From the NCBI GenBank assembly GCA_016196545.1, contig JACPXM010000048.1, positions 19,690-83,689 of the forward strand: a DNA stretch of 64,000 nucleotides, in the 5' to 3' direction. Each line of letters begins with the position of its first letter. The first letter of the stretch is position 1. Shown piece after piece: positions 9,847 to 59,958 of this stretch. This stretch comes from Candidatus Omnitrophota bacterium (GTDB lineage Bacteria > Omnitrophota > Omnitrophia > Omnitrophales > Aquincolibacteriaceae). The notes below the pieces were generated by a model. It did not search any database and was not told where the DNA came from. It worked only from the letters and a program-made list of their open reading frames with translations. A program made the position numbers and the translations under genes.

Positions 9847-9917
9847 AGCGAGTGGAGGGAATCGAACCCTCGTAACTGCCTTGGCAAGGCAGCGCATTAC
9901 CACTATGCTACACTCGC
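9847..9917 (-). tRNA. tRNA-Gly (anticodon GCC)
   Basis: Manual cloverleaf: GCGAGTG/CACTCGC acceptor, anticodon loop TTGCCAA, T-loop GGTTCGATTCC. No encoded CCA. Confidence 0.9.
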
Positions 9918-9955
9918 ATAAGGCCAAAACCCTCTGTAACTATTGGAAACTGCGT

Positions 9956-9984
9956 ATTTTAGAAAACGAGAGAGGCTTTGTCAA
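9956..9984 (-). promoter_or_regulatory. Sigma70-type promoter for tRNA-Gly: TTGACA-N17-TAAAAT
   Basis: Minus strand reads TTGACA (9984-9979), an exactly 17-nt spacer, then TAAAAT (9961-9956), about 38 nt upstream of the tRNA 5' end. Confidence 0.65.
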
Positions 9985-10002
9985 TGAGTGCCTGAACGCA
10001 AA

Positions 10003-10047
10003 CTCTACCGGTTCCAGGTTGCCGACGGCAACCTGGAACCGGTAGAG
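10003..10047 (-). terminator. Perfect 21-bp-stem hairpin (3-nt loop) directly 3' of tRNA-Leu, followed on the minus strand by TTTGCGTT
   Basis: ctctaccggttccaggttgcc gac ggcaacctggaaccggtagag. Lies between the tRNA-Leu 3' end and the tRNA-Gly promoter. Confidence 0.6.
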
Positions 10048-10054
10048 TTAAAAA

Positions 10055-10136
10055 TGCGGCTAGAGGGAGTTGAACCCCCACCCCTTACGGGACTAGATCC
10101 TAAGTCTAGCGCGTCTGCCAGTTTCGCCATAGCCGC
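10055..10136 (-). tRNA. tRNA-Leu (anticodon TAG), long variable arm
   Basis: Manual cloverleaf: GCGGCTA/TAGCCGC acceptor, anticodon loop CTTAGGA, variable arm TCCCGTAAGGGGT. Confidence 0.9.
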
Positions 10137-10194
10137 ATGGATAGATTAAATAGGCGAAAAAGAAAAGCTTTTTTCGCATATTTAGCTTGAAGAT

Positions 10195-10267
10195 TGCGCC
10201 GAGCAGGGATCGAACCTGCGACCCAGTGATTAAGAGTCACTTGCTCTACCAGCTGAGCTATCGGCGC
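10195..10267 (-). tRNA. tRNA-Lys (anticodon CTT)
   Basis: Manual cloverleaf: GCGCCGA/TCGGCGC acceptor, anticodon loop CTCTTAA, T-loop GGTTCGATCC. Confidence 0.9.
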
Positions 10268-10284
10268 ATGAAATAAAACACGGA

Positions 10285-11180: not shown

Positions 11181-11192
11181 AAAAAATTGCAC

Positions 11193-11568
11193 CCGCCATG
11201 AGGGGTGACGAAAGTTGAACGATGTGCTCAGAATGAACTATAAACCCTATGCCCGGAATCAACATGCTTGGTTTTCTTTTCCCTAGTTCCTCAAATTTCA
11301 AAGTATGCCTGACGGGGTTTGTCCAATCGTAACCAATTTTACGAACGACCTAAAGCAGTCCTCTTGGCCGCTTTTCCACCTACAATTTAATCCACAGTCT
11401 ATTGGAACTTTTCGGTCAAGGCAACCTCTTTGAACTTCGTGTGGATAAGGTCTCTGACTCTACACTTTCCACTTCGAACTTATCGCTCCCGTAGCGTCTC
11501 AAAATTCCCTCTGCCGTTTGAGAGCGGCAAGAGTTCCCGATACAAAGAATCAAAACTCTTGTTTTCAT
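11193..11568 (-). pseudogene. arsC: Arsenate reductase (LMW-PTP/thioredoxin-coupled type), decayed by frameshifts and stops
   Basis: ATG 11568 opens [35 protein letters not shown] with the CX5R(S) P-loop. The frame stops after 50 codons, and weak ArsC-like remnants (PHEV..., LVTIG...) continue in other frames. Confidence 0.65.
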
Positions 11569-11915
11569 AGCTTCTTTAACATCCCCGAAAATAAAATCGC
11601 TAGCAAGCCGCCCATAAATTGACTAGGCCAATAAACGAAGACAGCTGAGGCTGGAATTCTTTTTGCCACAACAAAGGAGAGCGTTACAGCGGGGTTAAAA
11701 TGCGCACCTGAGACATGGCCGACAGCAAATATCATCATTACAATTGTCAGTCCCCAAGCAAATGGAATAATAAACACCGGGAACGTTTGAGGGAATCTTT
11801 CAGCCAGGAGAATACTTCCTGCCCCGACGAAGATCATCGTAAAAGTACCGATGACCTCCGCCAGGACTTTTTGTGTTAGCAGCAACATTTGCAGCACCGA
11901 CATTCTTTGCAACAT
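11565..11915 (-). CDS. MIP/aquaporin-family ORF, N-terminal half only (TM1-3 and a single NPA box); likely truncated aquaglyceroporin of the ars locus
   Basis: [16 protein letters not shown]...[15 protein letters not shown]...YWPSQFMGG aligns to the first repeat of MIP channels. The ORF ends after TM3 in an ATGA overlap with the arsC remnant. Possible starts are ATG 11915, 11903 or 11888. Confidence 0.6.
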
Positions 11916-11944
11916 TCTTTTATCTTTTTAATAAGTTTCTTCAT
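11876..11944 (-). CDS. Candidate micro-ORF, 22 codons, 9 Cys: [22 protein letters not shown]
   Basis: ATG 11944 is preceded by AGGGAGGTGA (GGAGG 7 nt upstream); TAA at 11878-11876. It overlaps the possible MIP ORF starts in another frame and lies downstream of the duplicated arsR-type promoter box. Confidence 0.35.
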   Translation of the reverse strand: MKKLIKKIKECCKECRCCKCCC

Positions 11945-11961
11945 TTCATCACCTCCCTTTG

Positions 11962-11982
11962 TATCTGCTTATCCAAATATAG
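11962..11982 (-). promoter_or_regulatory. Copy 2 of a 21-bp box (tatctgcttatccaaatatag) spanning the spacer of a weaker promoter-like unit (CTAACT...TACAAA) upstream of the micro-ORF/MIP ORF
   Basis: 19/21 identical to 12360-12380 and in the same orientation relative to the downstream gene. Confidence 0.5.
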
Positions 11983-11998
11983 TTAGCTAAAATAAAAC

Positions 11999-12349
11999 CT
12001 ACTTACAACAGGCTACTAAGCAATTTCTATTTTTGTTAAGAGCCTTCAGGTCTTTTCCAAGTTCGTTAGATTCTGAACGACAACAGGACACCGCTTTCAG
12101 CAATACTTCATAGAGCTTGGCGGTTTGACGTGATAGACGGTAATGCATCCATAGACCTTCTTTTCTTCCCTGCACCAATCCTGCCCGTCTTAAATAGGCT
12201 AGATGCCTTGAGATTTTAGACTGAGGCTCTTTTAAAACCTGCATGAGATCGCAAACACAAAGCTCCCCTTCGTTCAAAAGGTTTAATATTCTCAGGCGCG
12301 TCTCATCCGCTAAGGCATTGAATAAGTTCTTGGAATCTTTCAATTTCAT
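11999..12349 (-). CDS. arsR: ArsR/SmtB-family metalloregulator
   Basis: Canonical ELCVCDL metal-binding/HTH region and SRHLAYLRRAGL recognition helix, with a Cys-rich C-terminus (CC...CLVACCK). Start placed at ATG 12349, immediately downstream of a -10 box. Confidence 0.85.
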   Translation of the reverse strand: MKLKDSKNLFNALADETRLRILNLLNEGELCVCDLMQVLKEPQSKISRHLAYLRRAGLVQGRKEGLWMHYRLSRQTAKLYEVLLKAVSCCRSESNELGKDLKALNKNRNCLVACCK

Positions 12350-12355
12350 AGCTAA

Positions 12356-12384
12356 AGTATATCTGCTTATCCACATGTAGTCAA
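12356..12384 (-). promoter_or_regulatory. Sigma70-type promoter of arsR: TTGACT-N17-TATACT, only 6 nt before ATG 12349 (leaderless or near-leaderless mRNA); contains box copy 1 (12360-12380)
   Basis: Minus strand reads TTGACT (12384-12379), a 17-nt spacer, TATACT (12361-12356), then ttagct and ATG. Confidence 0.6.
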
Positions 12385-12395
12385 GCCTTTAAAAA

Positions 12396-12469
12396 TGCGC
12401 CCGACAGGAGTTGAACCTGTAACCCTTTGCTCCGAAGGCAAATGCTCTATCCAATTGAGCTACGGGCGC
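12396..12469 (-). tRNA. tRNA-Arg (anticodon TCG)
   Basis: Manual cloverleaf: GCGCCCG/CGGGCGC acceptor, anticodon loop CTTCGGA, T-loop GGTTCAACTCC. Confidence 0.9.
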
Positions 12470-12565
12470 ACGGAATATTGTTGCAACTTAAAAGTCGGCC
12501 CGCCACATGCCAACATTAGCAAGCCCGCCTGTGCCGGCAGTCCCGCGTTGCGGGACGGGCGCACG
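12470..12565 (-). repeat. Conserved tRNA-upstream module, copy 1 (ATATTCCGT abutting tRNA +1; hairpin GTCCCGC-AAC-GCGGGAC about 71-87 nt upstream)
   Basis: Alignable with 39662-39757. It shares ACGGAATAT, GCCAC and CAGTCCCGC...GGGACGGGC blocks at the same distances from the tRNA 5' end. Confidence 0.6.
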
Positions 12566-59568: not shown

Positions 59569-59958
59569 TTATAATTCTCTGGAGATAAATTCAGAAACAC
59601 GCATGAGCAATTTATCCGCTCCAGGCGTAATGCGATTTCGGGGAGCCAACTCCACGGTGGTCATACTACGGTCCACCCGCTTGATAATCAAAGTAACAAG
59701 CCGCATGTCCGAATCATCCAACCTGCCATAATTGACATTACGGATATTGATATAGCCTTTTTCCTTGACCGTGTCTTCAAGCTCCCATCCTTCAACATTG
59801 TCCACTGCCTCCACGGTCCTTAAATAAACGAGGTCGTAAGAAAGCGGGTAAACCAAAACCTCGTCATGATAAGGAATAATTTTTTTTCCCCAATGCAAGC
59901 ACCCCGAAAGGAGAACGGCCATTATGAGTATTCCAAAACCTTTAATTATAGGATTCAT
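59569..59958 (-). CDS. Hypothetical lipoprotein (129 aa)
   Basis: Canonical lipobox LLSGC after a hydrophobic signal. No family recognised. Confidence 0.6.
   Translation of the reverse strand: MNPIIKGFGILIMAVLLSGCLHWGKKIIPYHDEVLVYPLSYDLVYLRTVEAVDNVEGWELEDTVKEKGYINIRNVNYGRLDDSDMRLVTLIIKRVDRSMTTVELAPRNRITPGADKLLMRVSEFISREL

Follow-up and report, generated by a model that had tools for sequence, protein, structure and literature searches.

The DNA analysed here is a stretch of 64,000 nucleotides (nt) from contig JACPXM010000048.1 (positions 19,690 to 83,689, forward strand) of the assembly GCA_016196545.1, which belongs to a Candidatus Omnitrophota bacterium; this whole stretch is called the window below. 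On its minus strand lies an arsenic-resistance (ars) locus in which arsR, the gene of an ArsR/SmtB-family repressor, is followed by a very short cysteine-rich open reading frame (micro-ORF), by the gene of a half-size aquaporin (half-MIP) and by a broken copy of the reductase gene arsC. The micro-ORF is the subject of this work, and the coordinates of all features are collected in Table 1.

Eight of the 22 codons of the micro-ORF specify Cys (three TGT and five TGC), that is 36% of its codons as compared to 0.96% in the long ORFs of the window. The eight Cys residues are confined to the C-terminal 12 residues, with CC, CC and CCC runs, and the N-terminal half of the peptide is Lys-rich and amphipathic. 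The 8-mer GGAGGTGA in its Shine-Dalgarno (SD) sequence occurs only four times in the 64-kb window when both strands are counted. At its other end, the stop codon overlaps the start of the half-MIP gene, a geometry that is directly visible and from which we infer translational coupling of the two genes. A GGTG embedded in the Cys-Arg-Cys codons is a candidate weak SD for the MIP gene; it survives a synonymous CGG/AGG change in two related loci, L167 and L176, where AGGTG is read. The sequence and its translation bear out the preliminary description of this DNA as to the placement, strand, length, start and stop of the micro-ORF, and its SD is, as had been said there, one of the best in the window; the described position of the stop past the MIP start codon is likewise verified as a 13-nt overlap, whereas the nine cysteines reported are in fact eight. 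A lipoprotein or signal peptide was ruled out, as the peptide has no hydrophobic stretch, and a precursor of a ribosomally synthesised and post-translationally modified peptide was ruled out by the absence of maturase genes from all loci examined.

Counterparts in related loci

All loci used for comparison come from uncultivated bacteria and are known from sequence. The search for ArsR homologues gave 2560 proteins, the closest of which are 60-91% identical to the ArsR of the window and nearly all 116 amino acids (aa) long; those with a named source belong to Candidatus Omnitrophota. We sampled 80 genome loci, 80 metagenome loci and the contigs of the closest ArsR homologues, and in each case searched the first 250 nt after arsR for ORFs containing four or more Cys. 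Such ORFs were present in about 29 of about 58 Omnitrophota-type loci, defined by an ArsR hidden Markov model (HMM) score of at least 159, and downstream of none of the arsR genes in about 105 Planctomycetota/Elusimicrobiota loci.

The 21 distinct micro-ORF sequences measure 9-34 codons over all copies and fall into two classes. The Lys-rich class has five members, all in the ArsR clade of the window: the micro-ORF itself and the peptides MKKRIEKIKKCCCKACRCCKCC (L167), MKKVIEKLKKCCCEACRCCKCC (L176), MKKRIKKLKKCCCKTCRCSRRACCPC (L082, with a GTG start) and MKKTMEKIKKCCCEACGCCPPQVRRIRPLADKCS (L166). Their Lys-rich N-terminal motif, MKKxI(E/K)K(I/L)KK, is kept across the members, with one Met-for-Ile in L166. 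The short class (9-20 codons, in about 16 loci) is spread over other ArsR clades and is exemplified by MDCCGGGCC, MDGCCGSGCCK, MGGCCGGCCK, MDRCCGGGCKC, MDCCDKGCC, MGCCEGFPGCC, MDDKKKKGCCGCCSC and MNDCKCGQSCKCCDDTAGCC. Most of the 20 tabulated micro-ORFs are preceded by GG(A/G)GGTGA, 4-6 nt and ATG (GTG in L082); weaker SD variants are found in L166 (GGAGGCGA), L019 (GGAGGCAG) and L106 (AGGGATGTGA). In the ArsR tree, loci with a micro-ORF are interspersed with loci without one; judged by this distribution, the micro-ORF is old and has been lost repeatedly.

Coding evidence and searches for known families

The variation among the relatives is of the coding type. Pairwise differences at codon positions 1, 2 and 3 number 68, 83 and 343 in the short class and 28, 16 and 56 in the Lys-rich class, and the short class shows 257 synonymous versus 128 non-synonymous changes. 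Synonymous variation was seen at Cys (TGT/TGC), Gly (all four codons), Asp, Lys and Arg (CGG/AGG). The residues other than Cys are constrained as well: only 1 of 93 is hydrophobic in the short class as compared to an expected 32-36%, the others being mainly G, D, K and S, and the Cys-rich half of the Lys-rich class contains solely K, R, E, A, T, S and P besides Cys. Across 2 Mb of related loci, where 1105 SD-preceded ORFs of 6-40 aa were counted, a Cys content above 30% occurs only downstream of arsR; the loci are phylogenetically related, so the significance of this comparison and of the hydrophobicity comparison is overstated. Judged by its pattern of substitution, the micro-ORF is a real micro-gene that has never been annotated. 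The preliminary description had looked to conserved counterparts in relatives, and these exist as the 21 distinct, synonymous-biased sequences downstream of Omnitrophota-type arsR. It had also considered that the region might be only the 5' untranslated region (UTR) of the MIP gene, which does not explain conservation of the coding type. Stalling at rare codons was ruled out, as the TGT/TGC usage of 32/62 (in 19 sequences) resembles the 68/90 of the genome.

No known family accounts for the peptide. Pfam and NCBIfam, including Metallothio_Pro and ArsD, gave no match at E ≤ 10 for the window peptide and three relatives; Rfam scans of the window region and nine related loci returned only tRNAs and noise; an exact look-up of six of the peptides in a collection of 15 billion proteins found no entry; and literature searches found no described Cys-rich small ORF in ars operons. 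The earlier remark that a peptide of this kind recalls no described family is in agreement with the profile databases and the literature alike.

Operators, gene junctions and RNA structure

The relatives give an operator consensus of ATATCTG-N6-CAGATAT, a palindrome-like element of 20 bp. One copy in the window (O1) lies in the spacer of the arsR promoter P1, and the same palindrome is found upstream of arsR in L100 and L105, where promoter and operator are arranged in the same way. The -10 hexamer of P1 is just 6 nt from the arsR start codon (12349), so the arsR mRNA is probably leaderless or nearly so. The second copy (O2), which the preliminary description had noticed as a repeated arsR box, was found within the 54-nt gap between arsR and the micro-ORF, just upstream of the SD, and in the relatives the palindrome likewise precedes their micro-ORFs. 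A third, weaker match (three mismatches) lies at 59728..59747, and three matches in the window are not above chance, as 13 of 100 shuffles reach this number. On either side of O2 stand degenerate hexamers resembling those of P1, CTAACT (11981-11986) and TACAAA (11958-11963). As the -10-like hexamer abuts the conserved SD, the transcript that carries the SD probably begins upstream and arises by read-through from arsR; O2 may be a second repressor site rather than a promoter. No terminator was found between arsR and the micro-ORF.

The junction with the following gene depends on what that gene is. In MIP-linked loci, the stop codon overlaps the MIP start in all 11 distinct cases, with ATGA, TAATG or ATGnTAA junctions and overlaps of 7-13 nt. 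The Cys-Arg-Cys codons give (A/C)GGTG 6 nt upstream of the MIP start, and the Gly codons of the short class often read GGAGG ahead of it. About half of the micro-ORFs are uncoupled, being either ACR3-linked or standing alone. What comes after the micro-ORF in L099/L100, L105 and L104 is a strong hairpin and not an arsenic transporter; the next gene encodes a PEMT/ICMT-like protein 450 nt away in L099/L100, an unknown secreted protein in L105 and an FAD oxidoreductase in L104.

No significant RNA structure spans the micro-ORF in the window (z = +0.62) or in other MIP-linked loci. By contrast, a strong hairpin starts 7-18 nt after the stop in all ten non-overlapping micro-ORFs tested, and five of these hairpins have a U-tract. 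In the ACR3-linked hairpin loci, no antiterminator pairing was better than in shuffled sequences (z from -1.2 to +0.8). Classical attenuation was rejected on both counts, for lack of a significant fold at the MIP-linked loci and of an alternative antiterminator pairing at those with hairpins.

Some junctions of arsR with MIP and of the micro-ORF with MIP are near-identical (L084 4188-4195 and L089 3422-3432, respectively). This likeness suggests that the micro-ORF and its operator copy were lost or gained by recombination between repeated TGTTGCAAATG stretches.

Features around the micro-ORF

Table 1. Features of the ars locus in the window, and comparable genes in related loci (coordinates of the latter are those of each locus).
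Feature	Position	Strand	Description
tRNA-Arg(tcg)	12395..12470	-	upstream of arsR
arsR promoter P1, TTGACT-17-TATACT	12356..12384	-	sigma-70-type, 10/12 consensus matches
Operator copy O1, ACATGTGGATAAGCAGATAT (minus strand)	12359..12378		in P1 spacer, 2 mismatches to consensus
arsR	11999..12349	-	116 aa, ArsR/SmtB family; Pfam HTH_5 at 7.8e-19
Operator copy O2, ATATTTGGATAAGCAGATAC (minus strand)	11961..11980		directly upstream of SD, within the arsR-micro-ORF gap
Shine-Dalgarno sequence, GGGAGGTGA	11949..11957	-	near-perfect; ends 4 nt before micro-ORF ATG
Micro-ORF	11876..11944	-	22 codons, ATG start, TAA stop
GGTG within Cys-Arg-Cys codons	11895..11898	-	6 nt upstream of MIP ATG
Stop/start overlap, ATGTTGCTGCTAA	11876..11888	-	13 nt; micro-ORF TAA 11878..11876, half-MIP ATG 11888..11886
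Half-size MIP	11565..11888	-	107 aa from ATG 11888; aquaporin repeat 1: transmembrane segments (TM) 1-3, one NPA
arsC (LMWPc type) pseudogene	11405..11568	-	residues 1-35, then 121-139 in another frame
Terminator-like hairpin + T-run	11190..11212	-	closes the locus
Half-MIP gene, L082	4433-4795
Half-MIP gene, L084	4188-4508
Half-MIP gene, L166	593-958
Half-MIP gene, L167	1001-1336
Half-MIP gene, L176	2958-3293
~50-aa family gene, L004	4419-4580
~50-aa family gene, L169	3501-3650
~50-aa family gene, L172	3501-3653
~50-aa family gene, L174	3501-3653

The ArsR of the window carries ELCVCD and C-terminal Cys pairs (...SCCRSE...NCLVACCK), a Cys-rich tail that had been remarked on before. The aquaporin-like ORF named in the preliminary description does match MIP, but it is half a MIP, and the arsC behind it is broken, both of which went unremarked there. 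It covers Pfam MIP positions 6-105 of 222, aligns to AqpZ residues 6-100 of 234, and is 66% identical over its full length to the 120-aa protein of L082. Relatives encode a half-MIP of 103-121 aa followed by a full arsC of 123-149 aa, usually through an ATGA overlap (L166 and L176 have a gap of about 47 nt instead), and a full-length MIP of 243 aa was found in one locus only, L015. As the relatives encode a half-MIP of the same size, the half-size form is the normal state. A truncated MIP pseudogene in a dead locus was ruled out on the same ground, only arsC being broken. The deletion within arsC removes about 255 nt (by tblastn with the ArsC of L082) and leaves Pfam LMWPc positions 1-40 of 144; arsR, the micro-ORF, its SD and the half-MIP gene are all intact despite it.

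Lys and Arg residues of the half-MIP number three on each of the two membrane faces, a charge balance that would agree with antiparallel homodimers of dual topology in which the aquaporin fold is restored. Literature searches found no papers on half-size aquaporins ("semi-aquaporins"). A stable, hairpin-like inverted repeat, GAGAUGAUCGG...CGAUGAUCUUC, recurs in the 5' coding region of half-MIP genes, in the codons for AEMIGTFAMIF (L167 1039-1075, L009 4455-4490, L082 4501-4530; the equivalent in the window is at about 11836-11865), and may merely reflect repeated Met-Ile codons.

The ars locus and an M48 peptidase gene are bracketed by tRNA genes, with tRNA-Arg(tcg) upstream and tRNA-Lys, tRNA-Leu and tRNA-Gly downstream (9847..10268, minus strand). 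The arsR module of relatives occupies quite different neighbourhoods, and it seems to move around.

Proteins of about 50 residues coupled to ArsP_1

In two loci nested in the ArsR clade that bears the Lys-rich micro-ORFs (L003 and L004), the slot after arsR is taken by a Lys/Glu-rich ORF of 52-53 aa with two CC pairs. HMMER and profile searches with it recovered 284 proteins of 45-64 aa, all annotated as "hypothetical" and, where the source is named, from Omnitrophota. Residues F15, D24, C36, C37, S50, C51 and C52 are invariant in this family. In every context fetched, its gene lies directly upstream of a gene for an ArsP_1 (PF03773) permease, which it overlaps by 13 nt (ATGCTGCAG(C/T)TAA); the arrangements include ArsR-[50 aa]-ArsP-ArsC, ACR3-ArsC-[49 aa]-ArsP and one without arsR. 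Judged by this constant neighbourhood, the family looks like an unrecognised partner of the ArsP_1 permease, and literature and database searches turned up no described family, annotation or paper that covers it.

The family shares with the micro-ORF a Lys-rich N-terminal helix (LIEKLDKK as compared to VIEKLKK or RIEKIKK in the class of the window), two CC clusters and, in L003, L004 and L172, the place behind arsR; its gene likewise overlaps that of the transporter by 13 nt (ATGCTGCAGCTAA as compared to ATGTTGCTGCTAA). It differs in being about twice as long and in having ArsP_1 rather than a half-MIP as its partner. Its profile similarity to the class of the window is not significant, and we regard it as an analogue of the micro-ORF and not as a proven homologue.

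Possible functions of the micro-ORF

Sequence alone cannot decide between the two functions offered in the preliminary description, a peptide that binds As(III) or metals and a Cys-codon leader. The reading that we prefer, tentatively and at slightly under an even chance, is that the micro-ORF encodes a metallothionein-like, As(III)-binding micro-peptide that is controlled by ArsR and translationally coupled to the channel gene. Ribosomes would load at the near-perfect SD, make a peptide of 22 residues composed of a cationic amphipathic half and a vicinal-Cys cluster, and terminate at the stop that overlaps the half-MIP start; termination and reinitiation, the latter aided by the weak GGTG SD inside the Cys-Arg-Cys codons, would tie the channel to synthesis of the peptide. 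Like a metallothionein or a phytochelatin, the peptide would act as a thiol ligand, capturing As(III) on three or four thiolates once repression by ArsR is lifted, and would buffer As(III), pass it on to the channel or pump where these face the cytoplasm at the membrane, or do both. The 9-20-residue CC-(G/D/x)2-4-CC peptides of other Omnitrophota would represent this device reduced to a minimum. Such a product has precedents: ArsR and ArsD coordinate As(III) with three thiolates, arsenicals are bound tightly by CCxxCC motifs, and SmtB, itself an ArsR/SmtB repressor, controls the metallothionein SmtA. We prefer a peptide product because the residues other than Cys are constrained and give a metallothionein-like composition, of which a pure Cys-codon sensor needs none; because the longer variants include the Lys-rich class, whose N-terminus is conserved, and the ~50-aa analogue, which is clearly a protein; and because some micro-ORFs stand without an arsenic transporter and antiterminators are absent.

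Several points weigh against this preference. Many close relatives lack the micro-ORF, their arsR being joined directly to the MIP start, which argues that it is dispensable, and in the window arsC is lost, so that selection on the micro-ORF may be relaxed. The terminal Cys and Arg codons double as the downstream start and as an SD-like GGTG, and part of the conservation could stem from these overlapping signals. Homology with the ~50-aa family is not demonstrable, as the HMM scores of the five-member Lys-rich class are no better than those of 500 shuffles each. In ACR3-linked loci, the hairpin, behind which ACR3 begins after only about 30 nt, has the look of an attenuator. In the cytoplasm, peptides of 9-22 residues seldom last long, and small ORFs of this kind before inducible resistance genes are far more often cis-regulatory leaders.

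Accordingly, a cis-acting leader, or upstream ORF (uORF), is the alternative that we weigh most seriously, and we consider it possible if rather unlikely. The ribosome would pause on the Cys-rich ORF, either because As(III) cross-links the tetracysteine chain while this is still inside the exit tunnel or because As(III)-induced thiol stress limits Cys-tRNA, and would thereby alter expression of the transporter: in ACR3 loci by preventing the hairpin or terminator after the ORF, in MIP loci by covering the overlapping start or setting it free. At 9-34 codons the micro-ORFs have the size of leaders, their SD is very strong, and they lie immediately before an inducible resistance transporter; a leader is also suggested by the hairpins after the stop of all ten non-overlapping micro-ORFs, half of them with U-tracts, with ACR3 too close to have a promoter of its own. 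The tandem Cys codons recall the polycysteine attenuators of mycobacteria (10.1101/834739), and CutF, which senses metal as a nascent protein and controls the gene behind it, is a precedent (PMC9973294). Conserved residues other than Cys would be expected of arrest peptides too. However, the downstream genes encode arsenic transporters or a reductase (half-MIP, ArsC, ACR3 and ArsP_1) rather than proteins of cysteine metabolism, a stalled ribosome would find no significant structure to remodel in the window or at other MIP-linked loci, no antiterminator pairing beats the shuffled controls, and L099/L100 and L105 lack any arsenic gene that could be regulated. The first two of these points speak in particular against a sensor of Cys-tRNA. 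The sign of regulation would also be opposite in the two kinds of loci, since a stalled ribosome blocks the MIP start but favours read-through into ACR3. Nor can the ~50-aa proteins, which share the layout, be Cys-codon sensors, given their length, their conservation and their mere 4-6 Cys, and As(III)-dependent control is already supplied by ArsR. A metalloid-sensing arrest peptide, in which As(III) would diffuse into the exit tunnel, bridge neighbouring thiols of the growing 9-22-residue chain and block release at the stop, appears distinctly unlikely to us.

To a slim chance we put a ribosome-delivery ORF left over from an arsR tail, whose sole role would be to recruit ribosomes for a transporter gene without a good SD, its Cys content having been inherited from the ArsR C-terminus (...GCCK*) and not selected. 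The arsR 3' end of compact loci indeed overlaps the MIP start and has nearly the sequence of a micro-ORF 3' end (GGT TGT TGC AAA TGA TG in L084, GGA TGT TGC AAA TGA TG in L089), O2 copies the arsR operator, every MIP-linked micro-ORF overlaps the MIP start, and the micro-ORF is often lost. Yet the Cys pairs and their Gly/Asp/Lys spacers persist despite synonymous changes, over arsR identities from 88-89% in the closest relatives fetched down to 56%, which drift of an inherited tail would not keep; they also persist in the micro-ORFs, about half of the total, that are coupled to nothing, and the first Cys pair lies outside any overlap. That the micro-ORF is not a gene at all, but a chance ORF in a 5' UTR, an extension of MIP in another frame or an element conserved at the nucleotide level, is hardly credible. 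Gene callers have never called it and extend MIP here in the other frame (to 116 aa in the window and 120-121 aa in relatives); this N-terminal MIP extension was ruled out, as that frame has stop codons in L166 and L167 and the ACR3-linked micro-ORFs are not followed by MIP. The Cys frame, by contrast, is open and in phase with the SD in 21 of 21 sequences, its variation has a three-base periodicity, Cys is 38-fold over the genome average, and there is no Rfam family match. The remaining probability falls to other roles.

Comparison with known systems

The system closest in layout to an ArsR-controlled micro-peptide is SmtB-SmtA, a cyanobacterial metallothionein under a repressor of the ArsR/SmtB family; very small metallothioneins are also known, such as the 25-residue copper metallothionein of Neurospora and the mycobacterial MymT. 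Like SmtA, the micro-ORF product would be a small Cys-rich peptide without a hydrophobic core, and its gene adjoins that of an ArsR/SmtB protein behind a predicted operator; textures such as CKC, CCxCC and an MD... start are shared with metallothioneins as well. It differs in the missing Metallothio_Pro match, in a length of 9-34 residues as compared to about 55, and in belonging to an arsenic operon rather than to one for Zn/Cd or Cu, with coupling to a channel gene. ArsD, a folded As(III) metallochaperone with a length of about 120 aa and the ArsA ATPase as its partner, passes As(III) to efflux through vicinal Cys pairs. The micro-ORF shares with it the vicinal Cys pairs of an arsenic-operon product, but it has no ArsD profile match, and arsA is absent from the window locus and from the relatives examined. 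The engineered tetracysteine tag CCPGCC, which binds biarsenical dyes, and hence trivalent arsenic, at high affinity, likewise has two vicinal Cys pairs with a short flexible spacer; it is a synthetic motif within proteins rather than a family of natural genes, and the spacers of the micro-ORFs measure 1-5 residues.

Among leaders, ErmCL, CatA86L and TnaC are ligand-sensing nascent peptides, and together with CutF they resemble the micro-ORF in being short conserved uORFs upstream of a resistance or homeostasis gene, CutF also in its metal-ligand residues. In copper sensing by CutF/cutO, CutF is exported and has a Pro-rich stalling motif, and a stem-loop shields the ribosome-binding site (RBS) (PMC9973294); no export, Pro-rich stalling motif or RBS-shielding stem-loop was seen at the micro-ORF. 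The polycysteine small ORFs of mycobacteria are leaderless, stand first in their operons and precede cysteine-metabolism genes, which they control by pausing on Cys codons, two consecutive ones being sufficient, together with a duplex that sequesters the RBS (10.1101/834739). They share with the micro-ORF the state of unannotated short ORFs with consecutive Cys codons, but the micro-ORF has a strong SD, arsenic transporters downstream and, in the window, no such duplex. The kind of element is known, whether as a repressor-controlled Cys-rich metal ligand or as a Cys-rich uORF, but the form is new: 9-34 codons, in arsenic operons, coupled to a half-aquaporin, ACR3 or ArsP.

Implications

If the micro-ORF were a leader, it would be the first metalloid-responsive uORF. 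If it encoded an arrest peptide, the ribosome itself would report intracellular arsenite and set both the read-through of the ACR3 terminator and the reinitiation on the half-MIP gene, so that arsenic would be sensed a second time, in translation, in addition to its sensing by ArsR. If, as we prefer, the micro-ORFs work through their peptides, no smaller thiol ligands encoded by genes would be known from any arsenic-resistance system; the peptides would be ribosomal and ArsR-inducible counterparts of phytochelatins and metallothioneins, and natural relatives of the tetracysteine tag; they would constitute a new component of ars operons and offer very short As(III)-binding sequences for biosensors or sequestration. 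The coupled partner of the micro-ORF, a conserved half-size aquaporin, is itself unusual. A recurrent operon component of a whole phylum, Omnitrophota, escapes current gene callers.

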